From Bythopirellula sp. (lineage in GTDB: Bacteria; Planctomycetota; Planctomycetia; Pirellulales; Lacipirellulaceae), in NCBI GenBank assembly GCA_965216565.1, contig OZ244170.1, positions 3,968,001-4,032,000 of the forward strand: a stretch of 64,000 nt of DNA, read 5' to 3'. This document shows, piece by piece, positions 43,184 through 60,764 of the stretch. The notes beneath the pieces are model-generated. The model was not told the origin of the DNA. It ran no database searches and worked only from the letters and a program-made list of their open reading frames with translations. Within the stretch, counting starts at the first letter, position 1, and each line of letters opens with the position of its first letter. A program made the position numbers and the translations under genes.

Positions 43184-43582
43184 ATGGAAGCTGAAGCACG
43201 CAGTGATGATGCGTTGAGAGACTGTCCGTTTTGCGGGGAGAAAATCAAAGCGATTGCTAAAAAGTGCCGGTACTGTCGCGAGTATCTTGACGAAGAGATG
43301 CGAGCGCAAAACTTGAGGGAATCGATGCCCTCGGCAATCGACCGCTTCATCGCGCCGGACTATACGCCCTCCTATGCAATTACCGCTGGATATTTAGGTT
43401 TATTCTCCTTATTGCCTTTGATCGGAGTTCTGGCAATTGCTTTTAGCTGGCATGCCCTACGCCGACTTCGGCAAAATCCTGAACAACTTGGTCGAGGAAG
43501 AGCAATGTTTGGCTTGGTGATGGGGATCATTACCACATGCTTCTGGGGAGGCATAATCATCGCCGCCGCCATCAGTGGGTGA
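43184..43582 (+). CDS. Zinc-ribbon + DUF4190-like membrane protein
   Basis: CPFCGEKIKAIAKKCRYC; hydrophobic segments with GRGRAMFGLVMG. Confidence 0.8.
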   Translation: MEAEARSDDALRDCPFCGEKIKAIAKKCRYCREYLDEEMRAQNLRESMPSAIDRFIAPDYTPSYAITAGYLGLFSLLPLIGVLAIAFSWHALRRLRQNPEQLGRGRAMFGLVMGIITTCFWGGIIIAAAISG

Positions 43583-43603: not shown

Positions 43604-46600
43604 TCAGTCCCTGCGGTAGACAGGTTCCTGGTCATCAATTTGCCAACCGACTACGTCATTCAAATTCAGGCGGAATGGCAGCCCTTGGCGGAGAAGCGGA
43701 AACAATTGCGATTCGCCCACCAACTCTCCTTCAAATTGCAGGCCCCCATAGTCTCGTGAGATTGAGTCAACCGCTAAGCGAAATTCTCCGCTCTTAACCT
43801 GTGGGATACAGTACGCTATCACCTCCAGTTGCGGATTCGCGGCCGACTCGAATCGTCTTGCTACCTCAGACAGGGCGAGTCTATGCTCTCGGTCACCAAC
43901 CACATTGGGCTGCTGTTGCCAGGAGCTTAGTGAAAGTCCCTGTCCAAGGACCAAGGGCACAACACCGCTTTGTATCCAGTGAGAAACCAAATCGTGATGT
44001 GCCGGATGCATTCGAAAACCACGCCAAGAGTCCACATCTTCGATACAGAGAATCCGGGAATGGCCTTTGGATAGTTCGCCTGTGACTCTTCGGGCAACAT
44101 CCTCTGCCTCTCGATGCTCGGTTTCGGAGAGGGCCACAGTCCCCACGACTAGCCAGTATTGGCACTTAGCGGCAGTTTCGAGTAATGGATGCGTTTCGCC
44201 GTCAAATTCCCAACCTCTGTCGAATGGCCCCTTTCCCGTTGCCAACCACACTCCAGATTTATCGAGCTGAATTGCAAAGCATCCGGAAGATTCCTCCCTG
44301 CGAGATCCCAGTGAAAGCAGTTTCTTGTCCGATAGTTTGTTTCTATCTAACGCGCTTTCGATCTGTTCGCTGTCCAAGTGCCAAGGTGTCTCGGAGAGAA
44401 AGACTGCATGAACAGTGTTAAAGTCATAGGGCAGTGCCACGGGGAATTCTCGTTGCAGTTCCCCGTATTCTTTGCCCCAAAAAACAGGCCCAGTTGATTC
44501 GCTGTGATAGAACGCAGTCGCCGACTCATCTTTCCTGGCGACTTCTAGTGCAAGTTGCTGCGCGCGGCGATGATTTTCTGTCGCTGCTGCCACGATTGCA
44601 AGATAGTCGACGTCGTTTGATTTCTGTTCGCGGCGGGACGCAAGCTGCTGAGCTTCTTTAAACATGTCCGTTCTTAGTAAGGCTGCAAAAAGACGAGCCT
44701 GATACAGGTCCCTCGTATAAGAGTACGAGAAGGAATCCTCCTCACCCTCCAGTAACTTCTTGGCGTGCTTGGCAAATGCCGAGTGGTCGCCTTGCTCCCA
44801 GGCAGCATTGGCCAAGTGGCGTGTTACTTGAGAGTCAGAGCGATGTGTGGTTCGATGGGCTAACACCAGTTGTTGCAGTCCATTCCAATCCTGGTCAGCG
44901 ATGAATTCACGTGCCAAGGTATTAAAGGCATCTTCCTTTGAGTTGTCAGACCCATAGTGCTGAGCCCAAGTTCCTGCAGCAATCGACAGTTGCAAAATGT
45001 GAGTATCGAAACCAGCACGACCGTTTGCCTCGGCCAACGATCGACCTTGCTGAAGCGACTCGATAGCCGAGTTCCACAACTGCTTTCCAGCCGCGAGTTC
45101 TGCTTTATAGTAATGCCATTGAGGATCGTCCGACTGATGTGCTTGGTGCAATTCGAGAAACGCTGCGACAGCTTCCCAGTGCCCTACTTGCGATGCCAAA
45201 TGGCACAGTTGTGCAAACCGGTTTCTCTTTTCGTCTGTAAGATTGTAGGCAGCGCTAAATCGTCCTTGCTTGTAGAGGACATTTGCCAGCATATAGTTGA
45301 GGGTCTCTGCATTGTACTGCTGGTTGTCATTTGGGTCCGATTCAGATGGTCGTTCTAACCCTTGACGCAAGAGCGCTTCCGCTTCTGCGTAACGACCATC
45401 CTCCTCTGCTAAGTGAGCAGAAAAATAGTAGCCCGCTAAGGAGTTGGGAAACTCGCGAACGAATTGAGCGCTAATCTGTTCGAGTTCTTCGAGCGAAAAT
45501 TGCGAGCCAATATCCTGGTATTCATAGACAATCGCGGTGAACAGCGCCTGCTTGCCGGGCGATTGATTCCAAGCCTCAACCCCGCGTCCAATGGAGCTCA
45601 TCGCGTCGACATAATTTTCGACGTAGCCATTGCGCGTCTGCTCGTCGTGCTCCGCTTGAAAGGCGAGTCGAAATTCGTCTGCAGCCTCTTGGAGTCTGCC
45701 AGCACTGCGCTGTGCAAGCCCGGCGACGTAATGACTTGCTGGCGACGTTGGGGAATTCCTTTGAAGATAGTCTCGCAGAAACGCAATCGCCTCTGGGTCT
45801 TGCCACGCAACCGATTGGGCCACCAAGGCTGCTGCTTTAGTTGGGTCCTTCTGACGCTCTAAGATGTTCTCAAACTGAGACTTCTGTTCAGCAGGCAACG
45901 CCAATAGCAGGGACTGCAAAGCGTTGGCGTGGTTAGGATCGATGCGGAGTATCTGCTCCCACTCCGCCAGGGCATTTTCATCTTGGCCCGAACGTTGGTA
46001 CAGTCGCGCCATTGTTTCACAAAGCTCAAGTGTCGGTCCCACACATTGCTTGTACTTCTTGGCATACTCGATGGCTCGTGCAGGATCTTTCCAGCGATAC
46101 GAATTCATCAGGCCGAAATAGGTCCCAGGTGTCTCTTGCGGTCGAGAGATTTGCTCGAAACATCGCAGTGCTTCGTCCTGTTCCCCAGCGGATTGCCAAA
46201 GATAACCAGCCGTCAGCCAACAGTACCCAACCATTTCCGGCGGGATCGGCTGGGTCTCGGCTTGCCGGAGTTTGTTTGTCGCATTTTCGTAGTCGCCCTC
46301 AGATATAAGTTGGTTCGATTCCGTGAGCAGATCGCTCCAGCGATTAAATCCTTCGTACAGATTGGTATCGAAGTGCCTTGCGTAAACTCCCCACTCTTCC
46401 GAGTAGTGAATGCCTTGATCCAACCGCTCCCAGTCGTACAGCTTCCACTGATCACCATCCCAACCAAGGATCAGACGCAATTCGGCACGGTCTTCTAGGT
46501 CGGGTAGTTTACCGTAAGCATAGATTATGCGAGTGTCGTGATCGTCCTCCGGAGTGAGTACACGAGCCACAACCAAATTGCTCCAGTAAGTATCTACATA

Positions 46601-47086
46601 AGCGGACTTTTTTAGCTGAGTTCGCAGATACCGCTTCTCCAAGAGATTATAGTTATCGAGATTTCCACCTAGCTCGATTCGCTTGAATAGCTTGTGGTGA
46701 TCAACCAAATTGCGGAATTGCTCGCTATCATTTGCCGCTGCAAATGCTCGCAGGTTGTTTAGTAGGCTTTCGATTGCTTGACGCTCTTCGACGTTTTCAA
46801 GCGGAATGCCAGGCAATACGTCATCAGAGGCCTCGAAGTTGCTAAACGCATCGACGGCTTCCGATTGCAGATGGGAAGTACTGTGCAAGCGGGTGACCGT
46901 CACGTTCTCGTCGGTTAACCGGGTCCGACGAATCACAAACCCAATAAATACGACAGTTGTGATTAGGCTAAGTAGAATTCCTCCCACGATGAGCAGGATT
47001 GGAATAACGCGGCGAGGTTTCTGGCGTTCGTCGATGGAGAGCCACTCGACATCCGAATCGAAAGAAGGATCGTTGCTGTGATTCAT
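43604..47086 (-). CDS. Large membrane-anchored TPR-like protein
   Basis: 1160 aa; N-terminal TM; TPR-like repeats such as ALAEWEQILRIDPNHANA. Confidence 0.78.
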   Translation of the reverse strand: MNHSNDPSFDSDVEWLSIDERQKPRRVIPILLIVGGILLSLITTVVFIGFVIRRTRLTDENVTVTRLHSTSHLQSEAVDAFSNFEASDDVLPGIPLENVEERQAIESLLNNLRAFAAANDSEQFRNLVDHHKLFKRIELGGNLDNYNLLEKRYLRTQLKKSAYVDTYWSNLVVARVLTPEDDHDTRIIYAYGKLPDLEDRAELRLILGWDGDQWKLYDWERLDQGIHYSEEWGVYARHFDTNLYEGFNRWSDLLTESNQLISEGDYENATNKLRQAETQPIPPEMVGYCWLTAGYLWQSAGEQDEALRCFEQISRPQETPGTYFGLMNSYRWKDPARAIEYAKKYKQCVGPTLELCETMARLYQRSGQDENALAEWEQILRIDPNHANALQSLLLALPAEQKSQFENILERQKDPTKAAALVAQSVAWQDPEAIAFLRDYLQRNSPTSPASHYVAGLAQRSAGRLQEAADEFRLAFQAEHDEQTRNGYVENYVDAMSSIGRGVEAWNQSPGKQALFTAIVYEYQDIGSQFSLEELEQISAQFVREFPNSLAGYYFSAHLAEEDGRYAEAEALLRQGLERPSESDPNDNQQYNAETLNYMLANVLYKQGRFSAAYNLTDEKRNRFAQLCHLASQVGHWEAVAAFLELHQAHQSDDPQWHYYKAELAAGKQLWNSAIESLQQGRSLAEANGRAGFDTHILQLSIAAGTWAQHYGSDNSKEDAFNTLAREFIADQDWNGLQQLVLAHRTTHRSDSQVTRHLANAAWEQGDHSAFAKHAKKLLEGEEDSFSYSYTRDLYQARLFAALLRTDMFKEAQQLASRREQKSNDVDYLAIVAAATENHRRAQQLALEVARKDESATAFYHSESTGPVFWGKEYGELQREFPVALPYDFNTVHAVFLSETPWHLDSEQIESALDRNKLSDKKLLSLGSRREESSGCFAIQLDKSGVWLATGKGPFDRGWEFDGETHPLLETAAKCQYWLVVGTVALSETEHREAEDVARRVTGELSKGHSRILCIEDVDSWRGFRMHPAHHDLVSHWIQSGVVPLVLGQGLSLSSWQQQPNVVGDREHRLALSEVARRFESAANPQLEVIAYCIPQVKSGEFRLAVDSISRDYGGLQFEGELVGESQLFPLLRQGLPFRLNLNDVVGWQIDDQEPVYRRD

Positions 47087-47143: not shown

Positions 47144-47656
47144 CTAGACCCCTATTGTTTTCAGCGTCCAATTCCCGATTAGCACGGCGATCAAACATGA
47201 GCCAATCCAGGTAGGCCACTGTCGCTGCACTATCGTATGACGCATCTCACGGAGGCAAAAGATTCGATAAGGGATCTGCAAAACTACGGCAATCCAAAGC
47301 AGCCAGCCCACACGATGGAACTGGATTGACTTAGTCAAATCACCACTCGACAGTGCAATAAAACTTCTTGTCAAACCGCATCCCGGGCAATCGGTTTCGA
47401 ACCAATAGCGGCTGCCACACATGGGCGGGAGCTCGACGCCACCGATGGTTACCGCCGAGGTCGTTCCGCTATCTTGGACGGAGAGCACAAGTGAAAGACC
47501 AAGTATCACAATGCTTGCTATGAGCATCGTCCAATGTCGATCGCGCAATTGTCGAACAATCTTCGCGGAATTAAGACTGGACCCTGCCTGATGTTCTGCG
47601 ACGGTCGGTTCGAGAACCAATTGGACTTCGTCATTCATGCGGGTCGCAATTCTCAA
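47144..47656 (-). CDS. DUF2752-like membrane protein
   Basis: PPMC...CPGCGLTRSF...H motif between TM helices. Confidence 0.85.
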   Translation of the reverse strand: MRIATRMNDEVQLVLEPTVAEHQAGSSLNSAKIVRQLRDRHWTMLIASIVILGLSLVLSVQDSGTTSAVTIGGVELPPMCGSRYWFETDCPGCGLTRSFIALSSGDLTKSIQFHRVGWLLWIAVVLQIPYRIFCLREMRHTIVQRQWPTWIGSCLIAVLIGNWTLKTIGV

Positions 47657-47661
47657 AAAAA

Positions 47662-48387
47662 TCAGCCCATCGTTTCGTTAGATACAGAAGGAACAAACAC
47701 GGTATCGCACTGGATGCAGCGTAACTTGCGCCCTGCCATTTCGTGGCGAAAGCGATACTTCTTTTTGCAGCTGGGACACGTTACCGAAGCTGTTGATGCG
47801 GGGTTGGCCAGCGCTTCGGAAGATGGACTATTGTTGGCCGTGGGCGATGGGGCGGGAGGCACTGGGGGTTTGAACGGTTCGCTTAGATTTGCTTGAACGG
47901 GGGCTGCTGCGGTGCTGCTTTGCTCTTCCACCAACAGGCTAACCGGATCCAAAGGAAGCTTTTCCTGGTTGAGTTCCACCCACCGTGCCGCGTCTCCATT
48001 CAGTGGACTTTTCACGTTGTAAACCTGATAGGCCAGCAATTCGCCGATGCGCATTACGATGGACGCCAATGGTTCGCCGGAACTCCAGTGGTCGCCCACA
48101 CAAATGGCATGGGGAGCAATATTCGGATGAAATACGGGCGACAACATGCGGCATTGGGGTGGAGTGCGCGGATAATTCCTTGGCAACACAATCTCAACCA
48201 TGTGGCTTTTAACGCCTTGCAACTGGTCATCGACCATGCGAACACTATTAATACGAAACTCAAGTTGGTAGCGCTCGGGAGGATCTCCCTCGGCTTGGAT
48301 CAAACGGACTCGAGGATGAAGCCGCGCGTACTCTTTCAGTTTTGCATGGTCGGCAGTCAACCGTCTCAAACGTACCGTACTCATCAA
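47662..48387 (-). CDS. E2 ubiquitin-conjugating-like enzyme with C-terminal zinc ribbon
   Basis: RLRRL N-helix; LPRNYPRTPP; FHPNIAPHAIC (HPN and catalytic Cys); W; SPLNGDAA; CPSC...CIQC. Confidence 0.9.
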   Translation of the reverse strand: MMSTVRLRRLTADHAKLKEYARLHPRVRLIQAEGDPPERYQLEFRINSVRMVDDQLQGVKSHMVEIVLPRNYPRTPPQCRMLSPVFHPNIAPHAICVGDHWSSGEPLASIVMRIGELLAYQVYNVKSPLNGDAARWVELNQEKLPLDPVSLLVEEQSSTAAAPVQANLSEPFKPPVPPAPSPTANNSPSSEALANPASTASVTCPSCKKKYRFRHEMAGRKLRCIQCDTVFVPSVSNETMG

Positions 48388-49694
48388 TCGCTCTCCTCAG
48401 CTTCTTGATCGGTAACGATATTTTGACTGGTGATGTCAAACCGTTCAGGGATCAAATCGACCAGCGTGCTAAAGTCGATCGCAAATCCCAGCCCTTCGGC
48501 AATCCTCTTTTCAGCAGTCATAGAGTTGATGCCGACTAGGTGTCCCTGAGAGTCGTAGAGTCCCCCGCCACTATTGCCGGGGTTGATTGGTGCGGAGGTC
48601 TGCAAGATCTTAAACTTCATATTCCCGCGCCTTTGACTTCGAATTTGCGAGAGGCTACCTGACGTATGGGTCCAGCCCAACCCGTGGGGATTGCCTACAG
48701 CAAATACTTCATCGCCAATCTTAGCTTTTTCGTTGTTGTCCCAATTTGCCTCTTGGACGTCTCGATTAGAAAGTGGAGCTGATACGATGGCCAGATCGAT
48801 ACCGTGGGGAGCGACCCATTCAACTGCGCCGGGAATCGACACTTGACTAATCGACATCACCATGACACTGGCGAGGTCGGACAGATTTTTTGGAGCACTT
48901 GTCGTCGAATCGGAGTAGTTCTGGTCGATGACATGCCGGTTCGTCACGATGTAGGCCTGTCCATTGTTGACTTTTAGCACAACGCCCGAGCCGATGCCGG
49001 CACGTCCGAACCCGGCATCAATTTGAATTAAGACATTCGCCCGCATGGCACGTGCGATGTACTCAGGCAAGTCGTCCAGTGAACTGGCATCAATGGCGAG
49101 TTCCGACATAGAGACGGCAGCCCGCGGTGTGCCAAAGTAGCTGGACAGCCCAATAGACCAGCCTACGACGTCTAACAGTCCCAACACCATCGCGGCAACG
49201 GCTAGTCCCATACCCCGTCGATTTTCGCGATGGATCACCAGGGCGATGCAACCGATCAGGATTGCGATAAGTCCCGTGATTATACCGAACAGAGGAATGC
49301 CCAGCAGTGCGACGACCATCGCCCAAATGCTCGCCCGATTCCACCTCCTATCAACTTTCCTGGCGTCTTCTGCCTCAAGACTATTGAACGATTTAGGCGT
49401 CGGGAGTGGCTCGGTGCTTTGAAGTTCTTCGCGAGTGATCGTCAGCGGCGTTTTTTCGCTGCTGGCAATCGTAGCTTTGCCCTCGGTACACTCATACGCG
49501 CTGCAGCCGTGGCCCTCTTGCCAACAATTTTCGTGGTGGACCGCTCCGCAAGACGTGCAGACCGCTACGGGGATGCTGAGGCTAATCTCTGCGCTGCATT
49601 TAGCACATAACGCCCCCGCCTCTCTCTCACCGGCATTGCGTATGATGGGGTCGTTGTGTGACACGTGTTTCACCAAGCTCAAAAGACTATGCAT
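48384..49694 (-). CDS. RING finger / TM / trypsin-like serine protease fusion
   Basis: CAKC...CTSCGAVHHENCW...GCSAYEC (prokaryotic RING pattern); DUF4190-like TMs; triad TNRHV, DLA, GNSGG. Confidence 0.88.
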   Translation of the reverse strand: MHSLLSLVKHVSHNDPIIRNAGEREAGALCAKCSAEISLSIPVAVCTSCGAVHHENCWQEGHGCSAYECTEGKATIASSEKTPLTITREELQSTEPLPTPKSFNSLEAEDARKVDRRWNRASIWAMVVALLGIPLFGIITGLIAILIGCIALVIHRENRRGMGLAVAAMVLGLLDVVGWSIGLSSYFGTPRAAVSMSELAIDASSLDDLPEYIARAMRANVLIQIDAGFGRAGIGSGVVLKVNNGQAYIVTNRHVIDQNYSDSTTSAPKNLSDLASVMVMSISQVSIPGAVEWVAPHGIDLAIVSAPLSNRDVQEANWDNNEKAKIGDEVFAVGNPHGLGWTHTSGSLSQIRSQRRGNMKFKILQTSAPINPGNSGGGLYDSQGHLVGINSMTAEKRIAEGLGFAIDFSTLVDLIPERFDITSQNIVTDQEAEESD

Positions 49695-49712: not shown

Positions 49713-50423
49713 TCATATCTCGGAGACAACCACAAACAGTAGCATCAACGCAGAATAGATCGCAGACAGTACGATGGCCGTCCATCCCATGATACTAAAA
49801 AGTGGCCCGCATCGCTTCAGTTTGTCGCGTCTGGGAAGAATGTAACCAAGGGCGATCAATAGCATCAGAGGAGCACAAAGCCCCAACAGCGAGCAGATAA
49901 AGATTCCTGTCACCCATTGTTTCATGGATTCCAGCTCATCGCTGAGCTTACCTTGACGACGAAGATCTCCCGCCGACATGGGATCGACTGTCTCAAAATC
50001 TGTTTGGCAGTATCTGCACCGCAGAGCAATCGATTTTATTTTCTCCCCGCATGCTGGACAACTCTTCGTGTCTCCCCAGGCGGTGAGAGGTGCTTGCACC
50101 GAGGCTTCCGACTTGTCGATTATCGATGCCTGGTCACAACCATAGGTTCCACAGCCACCCACTTCTGACCAACACTCTCGATGGTGCACTTGATCGCAAC
50201 TTGGACAGGTGACGCAATCTTCGCTGACACCAATGTCACTCTGACAAATGGGGCACAGCGCATCTCGCCCAGCATCCAGGGTCACCGAGTTTAGGAGCTT
50301 CAGGTCGGCGGTAACTGCTAGACCCTGTTCGCAGCTGGGACAGCGGAACGAACGATTGGCGCGGTCCTCGGGCAAACGGATCTTCGCACCGCACTGGCAA
50401 GTAATCGTTGTGCTGCTGTCCAC
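49713..50423 (-). CDS. Zinc ribbon / RING finger / zinc ribbon membrane protein (candidate E3)
   Basis: CQC...CPSC; CPIC...CPSCDQVHHRECW...GCGTYGC; CPACGEKI...CRYC; C-terminal TMs. Confidence 0.87.
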   Translation of the reverse strand: MDSSTTITCQCGAKIRLPEDRANRSFRCPSCEQGLAVTADLKLLNSVTLDAGRDALCPICQSDIGVSEDCVTCPSCDQVHHRECWSEVGGCGTYGCDQASIIDKSEASVQAPLTAWGDTKSCPACGEKIKSIALRCRYCQTDFETVDPMSAGDLRRQGKLSDELESMKQWVTGIFICSLLGLCAPLMLLIALGYILPRRDKLKRCGPLFSIMGWTAIVLSAIYSALMLLFVVVSEI

Positions 50424-50427
50424 TTGT

Positions 50428-50967
50428 TTACGGCGCCTCAGCCACTACGCTTAGCAGGACTCGCACCACCATCCAGAATCCCTGCACGGCAAGTGAAACC
50501 AGAAACATCTTTTTGCCCTTTGGTTTACCCTGAATCATCCAGATGATGCCTACGATACACCCAATTCCGGAACAGAGAATAGCAATCACCCACTCACCGG
50601 TGGACAGGTCGTCGTCTTCGTAACCTCCAGCGGAGCTGGTCTTCTTTACCTTCTTTTGTTCTTGTTTTTTGAGATCGGGATCAAAGATCTCTCCGCAGAA
50701 CCGACACTTGACCGCCTTGCGAAGAATCATTTCGCCACAGGCGGAACAGGGCTTGCGGTCGTCTTCTTGAACCTCGCCGGAAGTCAAATCTGCTTCGCTC
50801 AGTCCAGCCAGCGGCGACGCGAGTGGGTCGAGTGCATCGTCCTCTTGTTGAAGATTCGGGATCTGCAGCACACCACCGCACTTGGGACATTTGGCTTTTT
50901 TCCCGGCGGAACTATCTGGTGTGCTGAGCGTGGCACCACAGCCGTTGCAAGTCACTTTGATAGACAC
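50428..50967 (-). CDS. Double zinc-ribbon membrane protein (paralog A)
   Basis: CNGC...CPKC and CSAC...CRFC; two C-terminal TMs. Confidence 0.85.
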   Translation of the reverse strand: MSIKVTCNGCGATLSTPDSSAGKKAKCPKCGGVLQIPNLQQEDDALDPLASPLAGLSEADLTSGEVQEDDRKPCSACGEMILRKAVKCRFCGEIFDPDLKKQEQKKVKKTSSAGGYEDDDLSTGEWVIAILCSGIGCIVGIIWMIQGKPKGKKMFLVSLAVQGFWMVVRVLLSVVAEAP

Positions 50968-51092: not shown

Positions 51093-52076
51093 TCATCGGA
51101 GATCACTCCTTAAATCGATAGCGGCCATGAGAGACTTGAGCAACCGAAGGAACCACACAAAGGCAACGATGGCCGCCACAAGTATCGTTATGCCGAGAAT
51201 TCCCAAGACAATCCCAGCTTCCTGATCTCCCAAAACCACACTAAGAATACCAATTCCAACGGTGCCGAAGAATAATACGACACCGAAGATTATGAATCTC
51301 GCCGCACTGCGAGCCAAAACATCGTCATCAAGATGTATTGCCGTGCGGCGAATAAACAGAATGAAGAAAACGTTTCCAATAGTTGAGCAGAGGCTTCCGA
51401 GAGACTTGAGAGCCTCTGACTCCATCCCACTACCAAACATAGAAAGGCCTGCACTTGCCATCGTGCAGAAAAAGGCGGTCAACGCAAAAGCACGGGCTCC
51501 ACTGTTTGCAGGAACCGCGGTGGTCCGCGCTTGTCCAATGAGTATGGTTAGGCCGGCTCCTAGAATGGTCAGTCCGGCAACTCCGAATACTGTTAGAAAC
51601 AAGACTGACGGAGCCTTGTTATCTTCTTCCACAAAGGCACCAGTCACCATCAGTGCCACCATCATCGCAACGAAGCAGACAAAGACAATGACTATGCCGT
51701 AATAGATATTCGCCAATCCTCCTCGGACCTTATACCAACTGGGATCATTCGGATCGAATGCTCCGCCACTCGTCCTGGCCATCGATTTATCGAAAATCGT
51801 GCTGCAAAAACGGCACTTCACGGCCGTGCGAATGATCATCTCGCCACACGCGGGACAAGGCTTACGTTCGTCTTGGTCCTCTTCCCCAGCAGTTGTTTCT
51901 TCCTCACCATAGCCTCCGAGAGGCGATGCGATTGGCTCGAGTGCGTCGTCCTCTTGTTGAGGGCCGGGGATCTGCAACATACCGCCACACTTGGGGCATT
52001 TCGCGCGCTTGCCGGCAGCAGAGTCGGGCGTGCTGAGTTTACTTCCACAGCCGCTGCAAGTCACTTCGATGGGCAC
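51093..52076 (-). CDS. Double zinc-ribbon multi-TM protein (paralog B)
   Basis: CSGC...CPKC and CPAC...CRFC; about 6 hydrophobic segments. Confidence 0.85.
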   Translation of the reverse strand: MPIEVTCSGCGSKLSTPDSAAGKRAKCPKCGGMLQIPGPQQEDDALEPIASPLGGYGEEETTAGEEDQDERKPCPACGEMIIRTAVKCRFCSTIFDKSMARTSGGAFDPNDPSWYKVRGGLANIYYGIVIVFVCFVAMMVALMVTGAFVEEDNKAPSVLFLTVFGVAGLTILGAGLTILIGQARTTAVPANSGARAFALTAFFCTMASAGLSMFGSGMESEALKSLGSLCSTIGNVFFILFIRRTAIHLDDDVLARSAARFIIFGVVLFFGTVGIGILSVVLGDQEAGIVLGILGITILVAAIVAFVWFLRLLKSLMAAIDLRSDLR

Positions 52077-52149: not shown

Positions 52150-52286
52150 CTAGAACCAGTTTCAAAAACCGAAAACAGTTCTATGTAAGCCGACGGCGTT
52201 AGCCGCGGGTGGCGTAAGTCTAGGTGTTGTTCTGATGCTACCCGACGCTAGCGCGGTCGGCTCATTGGTTTTGAAACAGCTTCTAG
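52150..52286. mobile_element. MITE-like element with an internal REP-like palindrome
   Basis: Terminal inverted repeats CTAGAACCAGTTTCAAAA / TTTTGAAACAGCTTCTAG (16/18 match); internal imperfect inverted repeat 52187-52210 / 52240-52263; no ORF. Confidence 0.7.
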
Positions 52287-53350
52287 GCATTCTTAGACTC
52301 CTTTAGGGAGAACTCCAATACAGTTTTCCCAAGGACAATCTGATCTCCATCTTCCAGAATCCGGTTGGTTACGGGAATACCATTCACGTAGGTTCCCTCA
52401 GGCGAATCGCAATCTTCGATCACAAACCGGCCTCCTCGATTGACGATCTGCGCGTGCCGAGGTTCGATGGCGTCGTCTTTGAATAGATAGATATCAGCCT
52501 TGGGCGAACTTCCCAAGAAGGTGGTGTCCTTGAAAAGGATAAACTGCTTGCCGGCCAACGGGCCCTTACGCATCATTAGCCAAGCGGTCTTTGTCCAGCC
52601 CTCGACAAGTCCGACAAACAATCCGACCGACGCACCAATCACGGCAAACCCAACGCCACGGCTATACGTGGCCTGTCCGTCTTCGGTAAGCAGCACCAGG
52701 CTAATGGGATCGAAAAGCAGACCCCCCAGCAATCCACCCAGTACCGCGCCGACTAGGCCATTGATGATTACTTTTTTCTCGCGCAACGCAATGCCTTGGC
52801 CAATCCCGGCAGGAATCGAGACTATAGCCCACGCCGCTCCACGGCCCATCATCAATACCAATAGAGCGAGCCCTGTGGGCATGACATTGGGATCGGGATC
52901 TTCCCATAGACTTTCTGCCAAAACGCTCATGATTCCAAATACAAATCCTGTGGGGATCAGAGCCATGACTCCACCAAGGAACCCAACGCCGAGTCCCACG
53001 AAGCCACAACGAATTGCCCGCAGAGGATTTCGGCAGATGATCCCTTCGGCAGAGCCCAAGAGCAGGCCAATGAAACCAGCAACCGTGGGGAACAGTAGGA
53101 GCTTGGCGGCCAAGCCTTCATCTTCCAGATCGTTGTCGTCGACCCAGGGTTCCAAAATTCCCCACCCGATGAGACCACCCACCATGGCGGCGAGGGAGAG
53201 ATAGAACCAGTTTGCGTAAATCACCTTCACGATCCACGACTGATGTCCCATCTCGCCGAGGTCACGGCTGAGGTATTGCTGCATCTCGACGTATTGCTCA
53301 ACGTCGGGTGAATGCAGATCAGTGGACGTGATACGGATTGGATCCGACAC
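52283..53350 (-). CDS. Multi-TM membrane protein with C-terminal FHA domain
   Basis: About 6 Gly-rich TMs; FHA-like FLGSSPKADI...PRHAQI...GTYVNG...LEDGDQIVLG. Confidence 0.85.
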   Translation of the reverse strand: MSDPIRITSTDLHSPDVEQYVEMQQYLSRDLGEMGHQSWIVKVIYANWFYLSLAAMVGGLIGWGILEPWVDDNDLEDEGLAAKLLLFPTVAGFIGLLLGSAEGIICRNPLRAIRCGFVGLGVGFLGGVMALIPTGFVFGIMSVLAESLWEDPDPNVMPTGLALLVLMMGRGAAWAIVSIPAGIGQGIALREKKVIINGLVGAVLGGLLGGLLFDPISLVLLTEDGQATYSRGVGFAVIGASVGLFVGLVEGWTKTAWLMMRKGPLAGKQFILFKDTTFLGSSPKADIYLFKDDAIEPRHAQIVNRGGRFVIEDCDSPEGTYVNGIPVTNRILEDGDQIVLGKTVLEFSLKESKNA

Positions 53351-53355
53351 AAAGA

Positions 53356-54573
53356 CTACCTTTCGTCCGGTTCTGGCGAATCGGGAACTTCTAGTTCGGG
53401 TTTACGAGGCTCGAGACTTGGTGCCGCGGGAAGTTTATCTGCCAGGGGAATCGGGGTTGTTTGTTTTTTAAGATTCGATTCCGGAACTGTTCCTTTCTCG
53501 TCGCTTTGCGATTTCCTCTCTTTGTCCGCTTGCTCGAGTATCTTTAGCTGCTTGGCTTGGAGACGTCTGGAAAGCTCCGCCAGGGCCCGGCGTTCGCGGT
53601 CGTCGAAGCTGTATCTTGAGCTAACCTCGTCCAGCCGCTTCGATATTCCCAAGAGATTTCCGATCAGCAGTTTGCGATCGTTGGCGAGTTCTTTGAGTTG
53701 CTCCTCGGAGAGTTCGTTGGTCTCGGTCGGCATCGATTTCATCTGCTTGGTGGCAGAGGCCAGAAATTTCTGCACCTCGGCCAGTTCTTCGCGCAAGCCA
53801 AGTTTCGTCAGGCGGAAATCGGTGTAGTTGAACACCACACCGTCGACAATCGCTTGACGCTCCCAGGAAGACTTCATGCCGGCAAGCAGATAGCCCAAAA
53901 GGAACAACGCCAACAGGGCCAGCGGCGTCGCCGCATACGAAAAGAATCCAGGTTCCTCAGCGGGGCCGATTCCATTAGCACCCTGTGCGTTTGCCGAACC
54001 CTCCTTGGCAGCCTCGGCGGCGGGATTGCGGATGCTGGCTTCGACGGTGCGAATGGTATTGCCAATCCAATAGTGACTGATGGGAGTCGGCTTACCATTT
54101 TTCCAGGCAAAGACTCCCTCTAAATCTCTCACTGGATCGACAACATAGGCGACTTGGCCGGGACCCGAGAAAAAATGCTCGTGGATGAAGCAGTCGCGGT
54201 CGGAGAGGAAAATGCCGAAGTCGGGATGCGAATGGTACCAGCCGACAATCCGTTTGTCTTCGAATCGAGAATCCATCTCGCTATTGATCTGGCTCCACGA
54301 TTCGTGCGTGAAGGTGACCTCGGCAAATTTGCTAGTGGCGCTCTCGCAGCGAATGAAATCTTCGGCCACAGCATAGGGACCATCGTCGTCCTGGTACCAC
54401 AATCCGACCAGCACCCCGCAGATTTCAACGGAGGTGTCTTGCTTGGCATGCTTGGATATTCCTTGATGGACCTCAGGCGAAATGTGAAATCGAAAATCCG
54501 ACTTGCCACTGGCAGGAAACTGGCTTTGCTGGAGTTGTTCGTCGGCCAAGCCTCCGACATCAATATCACTCAT
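53356..54573 (-). CDS. JAB/MPN (JAMM) isopeptidase with TM and coiled coil
   Basis: EICGVLVG; WYHSHPDFGIFLSDRD (HxHx7Sx2D); TM ATPLALLALFLLGYLLAG; likely ATG at 54573 overlapping the E1 stop. Confidence 0.92.
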   Translation of the reverse strand: MSDIDVGGLADEQLQQSQFPASGKSDFRFHISPEVHQGISKHAKQDTSVEICGVLVGLWYQDDDGPYAVAEDFIRCESATSKFAEVTFTHESWSQINSEMDSRFEDKRIVGWYHSHPDFGIFLSDRDCFIHEHFFSGPGQVAYVVDPVRDLEGVFAWKNGKPTPISHYWIGNTIRTVEASIRNPAAEAAKEGSANAQGANGIGPAEEPGFFSYAATPLALLALFLLGYLLAGMKSSWERQAIVDGVVFNYTDFRLTKLGLREELAEVQKFLASATKQMKSMPTETNELSEEQLKELANDRKLLIGNLLGISKRLDEVSSRYSFDDRERRALAELSRRLQAKQLKILEQADKERKSQSDEKGTVPESNLKKQTTPIPLADKLPAAPSLEPRKPELEVPDSPEPDER

Positions 54574-55780
54574 GCCTTGCTCCCCCATTTGCTGTCGGAT
54601 CCTGCAACAACGGCCCCAGCAATTCTTGCCGGTCTCCTGCAAATTCGTAGTATCTCGCGTCCATGCCCGCACGTCCTGCTAGGATATCCCATGGTGGGAT
54701 TCCGAGTTCGCCGAGTGTTCGATCAAGCAGAGACGAGTCTTCGCCTAGCGTGTGATAAATATTGGGAGTGCGCGGTTCGTTGCATTTTTTGCAGCGGCCC
54801 TGGTCTTCAGAGACTTTACCTAGCGAGGTATAGATTTCCTCGGTCTCATCACAATTAGTACAGGTAAGTGTGGCCAGGAGGTCTTGATTGGTTTCAATCA
54901 CCGCTGCGGCTCCCAAGTCGGATCGGACGCGCTCCAAGAACTCGCCCACGGTTGTCTTTGCAATCTGCCAGTCTAGTTCTTCCACCGGTTCGTAGGGCTC
55001 ATGCGAGGGGCACTCCTCAAGTCTTGAATAGCTCACCAGATAACTTTGGTGATTGGTGCCATCGAGCACGAATCCTTGTCCGGCAATCGACGGTAGTTGA
55101 TGTAGCATTTTTACTGCTTCTTGCACCTGAATGCCAGCAATTATTGAGGAAGAAGTTGGCGTGGTGGGTACTTTCCCCTGTTGCATCTCTTCGCGAGTGA
55201 GCAGTGCGCAACTCCTACGGGCCTCAAGCATTTGCCAATCGATCTCGCTCATGGTGCATTCGTAACACGGCCCCGAGGCGGCGTCGAATACCCGCGCAAC
55301 CCCGTCGAGCCGTTCGATAGCTCCATCGATCCACGGTTTCCCAACCCTAGCTGCCGATAGATTGATGGCCACGCGAGCCTCGCGATTGTCGAGACCGCCG
55401 AGAATCACATCAGCCCAGCGATAAACTCCCAAACCCAAATCATAAACGATGTTGCCTTGGAACGACTGGGTGCGAAGCTCAGGATAGATGTCCCGTGCGC
55501 GTTCCGTAGCCACTTCCGCTTTGGCCCGGCCACAATCATCGCCGCGGTACAGAACAGAACGAGACAGATTCGAGTTTTCAATGGTATCCAAATCGGCAAC
55601 GAACATCTTGCCCACGCCGAGAAGGGCCAAGTTTTTGATGATTTCGTTTCCCAGTGCCCCCGCACCAATCACCAGAGCTTTCGAGGAAGTTAGAAGCTGT
55701 TGATCCCACCAACCAATCAGATCGAAGCGAGAGAAGCGTCCTTCCTCTAGCGCCGAACCAATCTTAATGGGATCCGTCAT
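54566..55780 (-). CDS. E1/ThiF-family ubiquitin-like activating enzyme
   Basis: IGAGALG, DLDTIENSNLSR, LDNREAR, CYEC, RSC (candidate catalytic Cys), CPSH, extra CTNC...CKKC; GGAG RBS before ATG 55780. Confidence 0.92.
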   Translation of the reverse strand: MTDPIKIGSALEEGRFSRFDLIGWWDQQLLTSSKALVIGAGALGNEIIKNLALLGVGKMFVADLDTIENSNLSRSVLYRGDDCGRAKAEVATERARDIYPELRTQSFQGNIVYDLGLGVYRWADVILGGLDNREARVAINLSAARVGKPWIDGAIERLDGVARVFDAASGPCYECTMSEIDWQMLEARRSCALLTREEMQQGKVPTTPTSSSIIAGIQVQEAVKMLHQLPSIAGQGFVLDGTNHQSYLVSYSRLEECPSHEPYEPVEELDWQIAKTTVGEFLERVRSDLGAAAVIETNQDLLATLTCTNCDETEEIYTSLGKVSEDQGRCKKCNEPRTPNIYHTLGEDSSLLDRTLGELGIPPWDILAGRAGMDARYYEFAGDRQELLGPLLQDPTANGGARHE

Positions 55781-55796: not shown

Positions 55797-56117
55797 TCAG
55801 TCGCACCCGACGCCAAGGATTGTGCATGGAGAATGGAACAGACGCCCCACCCCGGCGGTTATTTCCGGCTGGAGTCTAAGGATATCACCCTCTTCGACGT
55901 GGGCGGATTCCAGCGTGTCTGTATCCAAGAGCTGCCGGCCAGATTTTTTGTGATGAAACTTGTAGCTCATTGCCTGACCATCCGGGCTGTGTCGAGGCAG
56001 ATTCATGCGATCGATCAAGACGGCAATCAGACGATTCACTTCGGCATCGGGAGGAACTTCTACCAATTGACGTTTGTTGCCGGTTGCGTCCCAGACTTCG
56101 ATTTTGATATCACTCAT
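55797..56117 (-). CDS. Ubiquitin-like beta-grasp protein (YukD/EsaB-like) with C-terminal extension
   Basis: Ends its fold with TLESAHVEEGDILRLQPEITAG, then 17 further residues; ATG at 56117; first gene of the E1/E2/JAB operon. Confidence 0.87.
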   Translation of the reverse strand: MSDIKIEVWDATGNKRQLVEVPPDAEVNRLIAVLIDRMNLPRHSPDGQAMSYKFHHKKSGRQLLDTDTLESAHVEEGDILRLQPEITAGVGRLFHSPCTILGVGCD

Positions 56118-56764: not shown

Positions 56765-57592
56765 ATGATGTCGAATCCATTGACGGTCCTCATTCCTTGT
56801 AAGGATGAACGCCTCAACATTGTGCCCTGCATTGAATCCATTCAATCGTTTGCCGACGAGATTCTGATAGCGGATTCAGGCTCAACCGATGGCACTTTAG
56901 AATTGGTTCACAAGCGTGGTGACTGCCGTGTGATCGAACGCGAGTACATCAACTCGGCCGACTTCAAGAATTGGGCGATTCCGCAGGCGAGTCATCCCTG
57001 GGTTCTTATTCTGGACGCTGATGAACGGATCACAGAGGAACTAGCGGCAGAGATTCGGCAGACACTTGCGAACCCTGCCGTTGAGATCGATGGCTATTGG
57101 ATTGGAAGACAAAATCACTTCGTGGGTCACCGCATCAATCATTGTGGTTGGAATCGAGACGGGGTGATACGGCTTTTTCGGCGCGACGACGTGCGTTATC
57201 AAGAGCGCTGGGTACATGCCAAGATGGAAATTGAGCCGGAAAGGGTAGCTCGCCTCAAGGAAACGATGTTGCATTACACAACGTGGTCGACCGACGACTA
57301 TTGCGAAAAGTTGAATCGCTATGCGAACTGGACGGTCAACAACTACGTGGCCAAGGGACGTCAGCCGAGTGTGCTATCGATGTTTCTGGCGGCACCGCTA
57401 CGATTCTTACAGCTTTACTTGTTGCGAGGCGGGATTCTCGATGGCGCCCCCGGTTTTCAGGTATGCATGTATTCGGCGTTCTACTCGTTTATGAAACAGG
57501 CCAAGCTATGGGAAGTGAGCCACGCCCGATTAGAGCCAGGTGCCGAACCGAGGCTGGCAGTTCACGCGAAAGACACAGCCGACGCCGCGTAG
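56765..57592 (+). CDS. Glycosyltransferase family 2 (KdtX/WaaE-like)
   Basis: LTVLIPCKDE, ADSGSTDGT, WVLILDADE, RLFRR, VH, LHY, ILDGAPG. Confidence 0.92.
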   Translation: MMSNPLTVLIPCKDERLNIVPCIESIQSFADEILIADSGSTDGTLELVHKRGDCRVIEREYINSADFKNWAIPQASHPWVLILDADERITEELAAEIRQTLANPAVEIDGYWIGRQNHFVGHRINHCGWNRDGVIRLFRRDDVRYQERWVHAKMEIEPERVARLKETMLHYTTWSTDDYCEKLNRYANWTVNNYVAKGRQPSVLSMFLAAPLRFLQLYLLRGGILDGAPGFQVCMYSAFYSFMKQAKLWEVSHARLEPGAEPRLAVHAKDTADAA

Positions 57593-57632
57593 AAATGAAG
57601 CGAATTGCTTAGGCCTGCGTTTTCAAGCATGC

Positions 57633-59231
57633 TCAGGCCGCTTGTTGCGACTCTTCGGGAACCGGCACTTCATCGCCCGCCGATCGCTCTAGATAGATGA
57701 GCGTATTCTCGTGGGTGTAAGTCTCCAGCGCAGCCAGCAGGCACGTATGCAGTCCCGCCCATCCATCACGCCAACCAGATCGCAATAGATACGTCTTGAA
57801 GAATGTAGCCACCGTCCTACTCAGCATTCTCGACGGAGTGGACTGCTGCCCTTGTAAGAAGACTCGTCCAGCATTCGTAGTCGCAAGTGCGACACGCTCC
57901 TCAATTCTCTTTGCCGGATTGTCCGACGTTTGCACGGCTAAACGAGAGCGAAGTGCCCCAGTACATTCGCTCGGGATTTTCAGTTCAGGCAAACCATCTA
58001 TTAGGCAATAGCTTCCGACTTCGTGCCGAAAAAGTCGCAAGGAGTCGGACCGTTGAAACCCACCGTAGCGAAGGTGCGTGCCCTGCACGCAAGGTGTCGT
58101 GCCGACTATGTACCCATCCTTGGTGGGATTAAAGATTAAGGTGTGCTGCACCTGCCGACCCAGCTCGGGGTTGAGGTGTTCGTTACCCCTTACCTGCAAG
58201 ATCCATGGATGCTGTGCCTGCTGACGCGCGAACTCGAGCGCCTCGCACTGATTACAAGTTGGGCTCTGAATGATACGGCCTATGCCCTGGCTGCGGACGA
58301 TATCGAGCGTACCGTCGGACGATCCCATATCGACAACTAAGATTTCGTCGGCAAAGTCGCGCACCGATTCCAAACAGCTGGCGATTGTCGATTCGTTATT
58401 AAAACTAGAAATCAGTACTGAGAAGAGTTGTGAGCCGCTGTTTTCTCGTGGGCGAGCCTCGCCTAAAAATTGCCTGGCCTCGTCGGACTGTTCGATTAGT
58501 TTGGCTGCGAAGGGTTTCTTGAGAATGGCTTGCCGTACGATTTCTGCAGCCCCGGGATTGGATCGCCAGTTGCGTGGATGGAGCAAATCGCGGACGTCCC
58601 TGCCCTGCCGTTTCCGGAAGCGATGACAATGTTTTCGATATCGTGCGATGCTTTCCAAATCGATCAGCCAAACCTTGTCTTGCGGATCGACCAGTAGGTT
58701 CTCCGCCTTCAAATCCTTGTGAGCAACTTTCAGCTCGTCGAGTCGCTGGAGAATGTCTGCAATTTGCTCCCCGATCGTTTGCATTCTCGCAGCGCTGGGA
58801 TTTTCGTGACGCAGGAGTCGATAGAGTGTGGTGGACTCCACATGATCGGTAAGAAAGTACGACCGTGTTTTCAACGGTCCCACGGTGGTTTCGATACAGG
58901 CCCGAGGTCGCGGCGTAGGCACTCCGAGATTGTATAGATACGTGCTATTTTGCATCGATCTGCGGGCAGTTGTTTTAGACAAAGCATTCTTGGCACGCGT
59001 GCCGAGATCATTGAGATCTTGGCATTTGTAGACGTACTCTCCCGCGCGATCCCGTATCTGGACGACCTTGCAGCTCAATTTCACATGCAAGGGCTCGCCC
59101 TCGGCCAATTGAGCGTAAGGGTCCTGCCACAGTTTTTCGGCCAATTCCTCTGGTAGTTGGCTGTCCCAGAGCATTGCGCGTTGGAGGGAGCGGCGCTTTA
59201 GGACCTGCAGCTTTTGAAACTGATCTGTCAT
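57633..59231 (-). CDS. LPS/Kdo kinase-like (WaaP/InaA-type) fused to a GT2-like domain
   Basis: GVPTPRP, HKDLKAENLLV, WLIDLE; then FSVLISSFNNE, VDMGSSDGT, GWRDGWAG; start 59231 or 59264. Confidence 0.82.
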   Translation of the reverse strand: MTDQFQKLQVLKRRSLQRAMLWDSQLPEELAEKLWQDPYAQLAEGEPLHVKLSCKVVQIRDRAGEYVYKCQDLNDLGTRAKNALSKTTARRSMQNSTYLYNLGVPTPRPRACIETTVGPLKTRSYFLTDHVESTTLYRLLRHENPSAARMQTIGEQIADILQRLDELKVAHKDLKAENLLVDPQDKVWLIDLESIARYRKHCHRFRKRQGRDVRDLLHPRNWRSNPGAAEIVRQAILKKPFAAKLIEQSDEARQFLGEARPRENSGSQLFSVLISSFNNESTIASCLESVRDFADEILVVDMGSSDGTLDIVRSQGIGRIIQSPTCNQCEALEFARQQAQHPWILQVRGNEHLNPELGRQVQHTLIFNPTKDGYIVGTTPCVQGTHLRYGGFQRSDSLRLFRHEVGSYCLIDGLPELKIPSECTGALRSRLAVQTSDNPAKRIEERVALATTNAGRVFLQGQQSTPSRMLSRTVATFFKTYLLRSGWRDGWAGLHTCLLAALETYTHENTLIYLERSAGDEVPVPEESQQAA

Positions 59232-59475
59232 GCGGCTTTGCTTCAAGCAGTTGCGTGTGCTCACTTGCGAATGCCAGTGCTAGCACGTGAGAGTACGCGA
59301 TTATTTCTTAATATTGCGACCTGTTTGGCCGACGATGTTAACTCTTGCGGCCTGGGCAGCCGATACCAATTCTATCGGTTGGAGGGCCTACTGCCGCCTA
59401 TGCAAAAAGTGCGGCAGGAGACGTTTTGTTGTCAGTAGCGTTCATGTGTCATCCAATAGAAGAGCGACTGCGAGT

Positions 59476-60693
59476 ATGAAATCCATCGAGCAACCGCTAG
59501 CACCGACTCGCTGGTTCCGCGTGGGCAAATATCTATTGCCGGTCGGTGTGAATCACACCAGTTGGCGACGCACAAAGTCTCCCAGCAAACAAGTATCGGC
59601 TGCAGAGCTAGCTGCCGAGCATCCCGAGCAGGTGACTCTCGAAACCCTTGGCTCGGAGGAATTGCTCCCAGAGTTTCCCTATGCATGCATTCAGTCGGGA
59701 GCAGTAACCGAAAAAGCCCTGCCAATTAAGAAATGCCCCGCCGCGTTCGTCGCACGAATACAGAACGGACAATCTTTCGGCCGTCATTGCTGCGCAATCG
59801 GCCCAGCAGGGAAAGCTGTTCGAGAGACCGGGTTCAATCTTGAAGGCAACGTTCGCAACCAGGGCTCGTCAATGAGCTCGTTCCGACCTCGCTATTGGCG
59901 TCGTCGGCTTGAGGGTGACGTCACTTTTCGGCCTTGGCTTCCTCCCAAGCACTATCTTCGCGGGCGGGTTGCGATTCTCAATACACGGACGAGCCACAAC
60001 TATTTTCATTGGCTCATCGATATTCTGCCCCGCTTAATGCCGCTCGAAAAGTTAGGCCTACGAGCAGATTTCTATCTCGTTGAGTGTCTCAGTGAGTTCC
60101 AAAAGCAGGTGTTGGAATTTCTCGGCATCGACCGCAGTCGATTGATCCAGCCACATTGCCGCATGTTGATCGAAGCCGATGAACTGTTGGTTCCATCGAT
60201 GCCGACTCCAACGTGTTTACGAGACTTCGGTAAATTTGTCACTGACAAACTTGGCACTCAGTCTCAGTCCAGTTCTGGAAAAAAGATCTATATCACGCGT
60301 CGCGCGACAGGTAGCCGTGCGATTGCCAACGAAGCTGAACTGATCCGCGTGCTCGCTGCTCGAGGATTCGAGACCCATGCGATGGAAGACTACACACTCC
60401 CCCAGCAGGCGTCACTCTTTCGTCAAGCGGATGTAATCCTGGCGACTCACGGAGCTGCTCTCGCCAATTTGATCTTTGCCCATCGTGGGGCCCGCGTCAT
60501 CGAAATCGTACCCGAAAACCGATACAACGCGACATGCTATCCCAGAAAGAGCCGCATCCTTGGCCTGCACCATCAACACGTGTTAGTTGAAAGTAGCAAG
60601 CACAAACAAGTACTCAATGTTTCGTTAGCAGACATCGAGGCTGCTCTTGTATGTGCTGATGAGGCTACAAGCCACCAGAAACAAGTAGCTTAA
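59476..60693 (+). CDS. Glycosyltransferase family 61 (DUF563-like)
   Basis: NYFHWLIDILPRL, IYITR, NEAEL, QASLF...HGAALANLIF, VIEI; likely ATG at 59476. Confidence 0.88.
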   Translation: MKSIEQPLAPTRWFRVGKYLLPVGVNHTSWRRTKSPSKQVSAAELAAEHPEQVTLETLGSEELLPEFPYACIQSGAVTEKALPIKKCPAAFVARIQNGQSFGRHCCAIGPAGKAVRETGFNLEGNVRNQGSSMSSFRPRYWRRRLEGDVTFRPWLPPKHYLRGRVAILNTRTSHNYFHWLIDILPRLMPLEKLGLRADFYLVECLSEFQKQVLEFLGIDRSRLIQPHCRMLIEADELLVPSMPTPTCLRDFGKFVTDKLGTQSQSSSGKKIYITRRATGSRAIANEAELIRVLAARGFETHAMEDYTLPQQASLFRQADVILATHGAALANLIFAHRGARVIEIVPENRYNATCYPRKSRILGLHHQHVLVESSKHKQVLNVSLADIEAALVCADEATSHQKQVA

Positions 60694-60764
60694 GAAGGCA
60701 CCTCGACGAAATAGTCGTGAACCATACATCGCTCAGAAATTACAAAAACTGGAGTCGTCCTGAT

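Follow-up and report, generated by a model that had tools for sequence, protein, structure and literature searches.

The gene at 48384..49694, on the reverse strand of the 64,000-nucleotide stretch of Bythopirellula sp. DNA analysed here (the window), joins a RING-like zinc finger, a three-helix membrane anchor and an HtrA-type protease in one chain, and this fusion is a real and conserved variant within a predicted class of bacterial Ubl-conjugation operons. The reading that we tentatively favour is that its product would be an accessory periplasmic protease docked on a membrane-bound Ubl ligase complex, where it would cleave, on their outer side, membrane proteins whose inner part is likely tagged by the other RING protein of the operon.

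The open reading frame encodes 436 residues. Its true start is probably the GTG at 49664, ten codons in, as suggested by a 426-residue database protein (P0001) that is 99% identical. Pfam places a Prok-RING_1 match at residues 27-72 (E 1.6e-6; 28.4 bits, slightly below the cut-off of 29.1), DUF4190 at 122-181 (E 1.1e-8) and Trypsin_2 at 235-389 (E 9.4e-25); in the genome search the same gene scored 32.6 bits for Prok-RING_1 (PF14446), above the cut-off. The AlphaFold model of the fused protein has a mean pLDDT of 82, and its closest fold match is DegS-deltaPDZ (Foldseek E 1.9e-15). The protease domain (48450..49088, reverse strand) carries the triad H254/D300/S375, invariant in both homologue alignments (33/33 and 80/80 rows), and from this intact triad the enzyme is presumed to be active. 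A PDZ domain was found neither in the fused protein by the Pfam scan nor among the best 120 homologues listed. Pfam, the alignments and the fold match thus confirm the preliminary description of a finger, a DUF4190-like block and a PDZ-less HtrA-like protease with a full triad. The overlap with the E2 start that it reported is also real and amounts to one base, the stop codon TGA sharing its A with the E2 ATG at 48384 (TGATG), with GAGGAG upstream. The protein shares with the HtrA/DegS family, which we take to be MEROPS S1C, its fold, its TNxHV, D and GNSGG motifs and a membrane anchor with an outer protease domain (predicted here), but it differs in having no PDZ domain and in bearing a finger and a short motif on the presumed cytoplasmic side; it also scores far under all NCBIfam HtrA/DegS cut-offs (e.g., 77.5 versus 423 bits). 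The best 120 homologues listed align over 69-98% of the query; where an organism is named, all come from planctomycetes, with Lacipirellula, Gimesia, Botrimarina and Aeoliella among the named carriers. A weak search for longer proteins with the RING and anchor module found a trypsin domain in all 32, and the Atlas search with the fused protein returned its own Planctomycetota clusters and generic trypsins only.

The fused gene belongs to a co-oriented run of genes on the reverse strand, which encode in order a Ubl, an E1, a JAB peptidase, an FHA protein, two zinc-ribbon proteins, a RING protein, the fused protein, an E2 and a DUF2752 protein. The YukD-like Ubl (55797..56117) carries 17 further residues after its PEITAG end, which would have to be trimmed off. 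The PEITAG end is present in 45 of 46 rows, and only five rows stop at glycine, so that trimming would usually be needed. Beyond PEITAG the tail measures from 0 to more than 100 residues, continuing into zinc-ribbon sequence in two loci (L070, L071). The E1 (54566..55780) belongs to the ThiF family and contains a conserved RRSC cysteine (Pfam, alignment). The JAB/JAMM peptidase (53356..54573) has an intact HxH...D motif, one transmembrane helix and a tail of about 170 residues predicted to be periplasmic. The next gene (52283..53350) encodes a multi-pass membrane protein with a C-terminal FHA domain, whose N-terminus bears the motif shared with the protease. The usual phosphothreonine-binding FHA motif consists of GR and SxxH; this domain has invariant GS and EPxH (here EPRH) and may bind something other than phosphothreonine. 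The membrane part of the same protein is an internal repeat (hhalign 80%). Two double zinc ribbon membrane proteins follow (51093..52076 and 50428..50967, the latter assigned by Pfam), the first being 59% identical to its neighbour over the N-terminal 120 residues. Next comes a zinc ribbon-RING-zinc ribbon-transmembrane protein (49713..50423), the second Prok-RING_1 protein of the operon and the likely true E3. The E2 (47662..48384), whose start overlaps the protease stop, combines an intact HPN...C active site with a C-terminal zinc ribbon, and the DUF2752 membrane protein (47144..47656) is the last conserved gene of the operon according to Pfam and the comparison of loci.

The gene order is nearly fixed in 80 Planctomycetota genome loci selected for the strength of their match. 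Where the locus measures at least 20 kb (38 loci), the E2 is found in 37, the E1, JAB and FHA genes in 34 each and the Ubl in 33; the catalytic motifs of E2 and JAB are intact save for one truncated row each. One locus (L031) has a split operon, part of which is inverted. The operon is single-copy in this genome (94% complete), and promoter and terminator scans stayed at chance level. It is flanked by a zinc ribbon-DUF4190 gene (43184-43582, forward strand) and by a gene for a 1160-residue membrane TPR protein (43604-47086, reverse strand), which is close to the operon in only 5 of the 80 loci. The rest of the window (1-42882 and 56765-62372) is ordinary, with type II secretion/pilus genes, Ser/Thr kinases, PEP-CTERM proteins, an aspartyl protease and glycosyltransferases, including a Kdo-kinase/GT2 fusion.

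Burroughs, Iyer and Aravind reportedly predicted this operon class in 2011, in work that may also show a RING-TM-trypsin fusion. Prokaryotic operons with Ubl, E1, E2, JAB and RING genes are described, citing Burroughs 2011, in the available portions of PMC3417536 and PMC7159879, and the C4HC3 pattern of their RINGs is noted in those of PMC11354881. The operon studied here resembles that class in its gene set, its PF14446 C4HC3 finger, its YukD-like Ubl and its membrane anchoring. It stands apart from the accounts of the class, so far as the available portions of PMC3417536 and PMC7159879 go, by the division into an E3-type and an apparently E2-blind RING, by a protease predicted to be periplasmic and by the shared motif. 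YukD itself is covered without reference to these operons in the accessible part of PMC1779556. The literature search, with the 2011/2012 source papers outside the comparison, found no experimental study of the operon class and no paper on the fusion.

The location of the protease is central to its possible function. The DUF4190 anchor (49137..49337, reverse strand) contains three membrane helices in the model, at residues 120-132, 137-153 and 162-186, the first two paired as a hairpin and the third, preceded by a basic loop (155-161), spanning the membrane, for a predicted N-in, C-out topology. The segment ahead of the first helix is net positive in 57/79 rows and the loop between helices 2 and 3 in 80/80, and the stretch past the third helix is net negative in 79/80. 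Under the well-established positive-inside rule, this charge pattern indicates that helices 1 and 2 would turn back to the cytoplasm and that helix 3 would cross the membrane. The charge bias and the three-helix model together make it very probable that the finger is cytoplasmic and the protease periplasmic. In three distant orthologues the hairpin is replaced by two full helices separated by a loop of 20 residues, leaving the odd number of helices unchanged, and RING-less proteases of related operons (n=15) mostly have basic residues ahead of the last helix and acidic ones after it. The preliminary description had offered, as a fallback, a transmembrane relay in which finger and protease are separated by the membrane, and this topology prediction supports that placement. 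The fusion also becomes less startling, since its two halves probably act on different polypeptide segments. Homology of the anchor to CD225/IFITM found no support, the hhalign probability against 13 CD225 rows being 0.6%, not above control pairs.

The finger (C30-C69; 49488..49607, reverse strand) is a C4HC3 domain predicted to be cytoplasmic. Seven of its zinc ligands are invariant in 33/33 rows and C30 is present in 32/33; eight ligands kept across most of the family indicate some selective constraint on the finger. In fold it resembles a RING, C1 domains being tied with RINGs among its matches (Z 6.7 for ZNRF1, 6.1 for RNF12 and 5.9 for the C1 of MgcRacGAP), and it superposes on ZNRF1 with an rmsd of 1.7 over 52 aligned residues; the finger alone gave zero Foldseek matches under E 0.001. 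The spacing C-x2-C...H-x2-C-x6-C presumably resembles that of C1. This leaves room for a sensor of lipids or peptides, C1- or PHD-like and no RING of any kind, that tunes the protease to the state of the membrane, and the near-equal scores for C1 and RING, in fold as well as in sequence (E 0.008 versus 0.002), speak in its favour. We nevertheless regard it as quite improbable, because RING-H2 domains head both the fold and the sequence matches (by sequence, those of EL5 and Pirh2) and the finger is clearly paralogous to the upstream RING, in which the E2-contact residues are kept. The paralogy of the two operon proteins extends from the finger through the first helix (hhalign 99.1%).

It is in the E2-contact residues that the two RING proteins differ. 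Two positions were scored, +2 after the first cysteine (loop 1) and +4 after the sixth ligand (helix), which we take, with alignments as a guide, to be equivalent to the E2-contact sites of known RINGs. In the genome loci both are hydrophobic in 67/69 upstream RINGs versus 1/66 fused fingers, rows without the full pattern (3/72 upstream, 14/80 fused) being left out; in protein sets, with 16 rows dropped, the counts are 119/120 versus 0/104. The upstream RING also holds 11 of 32 non-cysteine columns at 90% conservation, versus 3 of 33 in the fused finger. E2 binding by c-Cbl depends centrally on Ile383 and Trp408; some true RING E3s are polar at those positions, namely Rad18 (His55) and PML (Gln59/Ser84), according to the available text of PMC3166285. 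Of 29 operons selected for having one detected RING, all are nearer to the upstream profile, several by margins of only 1-3 bits, and the loop-1 residue is hydrophobic in all; Asn occupies the helix position in 29/29, so only the loop-1 half of the criterion is general. The finger can moreover be lost. Two loci (L055, L060) have intact finger-less orthologues within otherwise full operons, and three others (L098, L099, L102) have fingers with four cysteines only. The 14 of 81 rows without the full finger pattern comprise three contig ends, six apparent frameshifts, two true losses, two partial fingers and one pattern miss. From these sequence comparisons, the fused finger is probably a duplicated, E2-blind copy, in effect a decoy and not an E3, and the upstream RING protein (49713-50423) is the likely E3 candidate. 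As to the RING proposed in the preliminary description, the Prok-RING_1 C4HC3 pattern bears it out, the fold is RING-like but tied with C1, and the hydrophobic E2-contact residues are lacking.

The fused protein shares a RING-like fold and predicted membrane anchoring with eukaryotic membrane RING ligases such as RNF13 (Z 4.9) and HRD1 (Z 4.7), a group to which gp78 also belongs. Its finger differs from theirs in the last zinc loop (C-x4-C) and in having no arginine past the last cysteine, and these ligases are not known to have a catalytic protease fused on the outer side. The paralogous pair, one member seemingly E2-blind, recalls RINGs with an inactive partner of the BARD1/MDMX type.

These results weigh against the main proposal of the preliminary description, in which one chain would combine an E3 module with the proteasome-free destruction of tagged substrates, the fused protease degrading the Ubl-tagged protein in the same compartment. 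The genome setting that it presupposed was borne out: no 20S proteasome or Pup ligase was matched in the genome (94% complete), where the sole hit was HslV beside HslU. The fusion itself and the translational coupling to the E2 would also fit. However, finger and protease are predicted on opposite sides of the membrane, so that the fused chain could not digest tagged cytoplasmic proteins, the E2-contact residues are absent from the finger, and the finger is lost in intact orthologues. An E3 finger feeding its own protease is, in our judgement, very improbable indeed.

The comparison of distant operons suggests that the protease is not a core component. Thirty-four complete operons were counted, defined by the presence of Ubl, E1, JAB, FHA and E2 in a sample biased by the query; six carry the fused form, 12 have a membrane protease without a RING, and in 16 no protease was detected, 11 of these 16 having at least 4 kb of sequence beyond the Ubl. 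In an unrooted tree of protease domains (n=42), the 35 operon enzymes separate from seven housekeeping HtrAs with support of 100/98, and the fused and zinc-ribbon protease forms group together at 96/90. The operon protease is thus likely an accessory plug-in unit, and the minimal kit would consist of Ubl, E1, JAB, the FHA membrane protein, one RING and E2. In two loci (L137, L156) the upstream protease reads TSK versus TARH elsewhere and may lack the catalytic histidine. Within one genus, three genomes (L095-L097) have an isolated E2-zinc ribbon gene, and no further gene of the operon was detected in the surrounding 10 kb or so. The JAB tail was also considered as an RseA-like substrate of the protease, an idea prompted by two operons that lack the protease and whose tails are short or dissimilar, and it failed on the 34 operons: the tail does not track the protease, measuring 26-149 residues without a protease and 55-221 with a RING-less one. 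An Atlas search with the JAB tail gave no usable match.

A sample of 300 other genomes of the phylum contained the E2 in 22 and the fused protease in at least 10, the latter count being a lower bound, as one genome with the fused gene was missed (G048, locus L100). Such a patchy spread would suit an anti-phage system, in which the Ubl would be conjugated to phage proteins and the protease would cut phage parts or envelope receptors. The bacterial Ubl pathways that have been tested are antiviral or proposed to be so, according to the available portions of PMC11601596 and PMC11601603. The Bil (types I and II) and Bub systems described there resemble this operon in having Ubl, E1, E2 and JAB and a Ubl with a tail after the glycine, but their gene lists, as given in those portions, include no RING, FHA or trypsin protease. 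By the same partial accounts, Bub forms Tyr/Ser oxyesters and uses a DUF6527 protease; the operon studied here keeps the E1 and E2 cysteines, and DUF6527 is not among its Pfam matches. The surroundings do not resemble a defence island either, a setting rejected because PADLOC matched no more than 6 of the 112 flanking proteins taken from 30 loci (six long proteins of 118 having been omitted for size), all of them generic, namely two Ser/Thr kinases, two cysteine desulfurases and two partial mad3. The GC content is flat across the window, no tRNA occurs in its 64 kb, the E1 is far from BilD (PADLOC, E 1.3e-6), and the E2 and the Ubl have no PADLOC match. None of 12 pattern matches in viral contigs was confirmed. 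On balance, an anti-phage role of this kind appears distinctly unlikely.

The element that may tie the protease to the tagging machinery is a short strand-helix motif at residues 84-91 (49422..49445, reverse strand), with the consensus [ILM]-x-[IV]-[ST]-x-x-[DE]-[LV], common to the N-terminus of the FHA membrane protein and to the RING-less operon proteases. In the RING-less proteases sited upstream of the Ubl gene, it is the sole evident cytoplasmic element, and in the fused protease it is kept after loss of the finger (L055, L060). Scored with the other family's matrix, the motif lies above the 99.9th background percentile in 43/51 and 63/77 cases. In distant loci it occurs in 48 of 50 FHA proteins versus 2.3 expected, in 10 of 17 RING-less proteases versus 0.8 expected (three of the misses being truncated) and in 6 of 46 E1 N-termini versus 0.6 expected; it was found in none of 49 E2 tails of these loci. 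Among seven fused proteases five gave a match, one of which (L110) lies away from the real motif. These patterns point to a putative docking site onto the tagging machinery as the likely role of the motif, for which the Ubl is the most interesting candidate partner. A phosphothreonine site for the FHA domain was rejected: the relevant position is Ser in 39 and Thr in 32 protease rows and Thr, Asp, Ser or Asn in the FHA protein, which fits a helix cap, and the FHA domain itself departs from the usual GR and SxxH. The E1 N-termini (54566-55780) often open with a D-V-L-R-L-like strand, similar to the motif and to the last strand of the Ubl. An additional gene in one protease-less operon (L105:7839-8510) encodes the motif, a single membrane helix and an outer domain that belongs to no Pfam family, and is possibly another plug-in.

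The motif, as we see it, resembles a SUMO-interacting strand, and the Ubl has a weak SUMO-like Pfam match (E 2e-4). A bolder and rather unlikely extension would make the motif a bacterial reader of Ubl tags, the counterpart of the SUMO-interacting motif, assembling the FHA scaffold and the protease on tagged membrane complexes so that a cytoplasmic Ubl signal switches on the periplasmic protease, with the two RINGs forming an active-plus-decoy pair. The main rival to our reading is an inside-out switch in which either the motif or the finger, acting by itself or paired with the upstream RING in a heterodimer, would read the Ubl state in the cytoplasm and cluster or activate the PDZ-less periplasmic protease as the output of the cascade. 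The predicted opposite-side topology and the missing PDZ domain are consistent with such a switch, as are the adjacency of the paralogous RINGs, the gene overlap with the E2 and the SUMO-like features of motif and Ubl. On the other hand, the finger is dispensable in orthologues, and a protease undetected in 16 of 34 operons can hardly be the core output. This switch is possible but doubtful.

In the mechanism that we tentatively favour, that of an accessory protease docked on the ligase complex, JAB would trim the Ubl to ...PEITAG, and E1 would activate it and hand it over to the E2 cysteine. The upstream RING protein (49713-50423) would recruit the E2 and tag the cytoplasmic parts of membrane proteins, a modification that JAB would reverse. 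The protease would be held in the complex by the strand-helix motif also borne by the FHA membrane protein, its own finger being an E2-blind duplicate that serves as a scaffold at most; selectivity would come from docking, with no PDZ gate. Because no 20S proteasome was found, the tagged remainder would presumably pass to ordinary cytoplasmic proteases. By analogy, the process would combine an initial cleavage of the DegS type with a membrane ligase resembling those of ERAD. The result bears on whether a complete E1-E2-RING E3 cascade operates in bacteria and on what purpose it would serve, and the analysis singles out the parts: the upstream RING as the E3 candidate, and a plug-in protease with an eight-residue motif.
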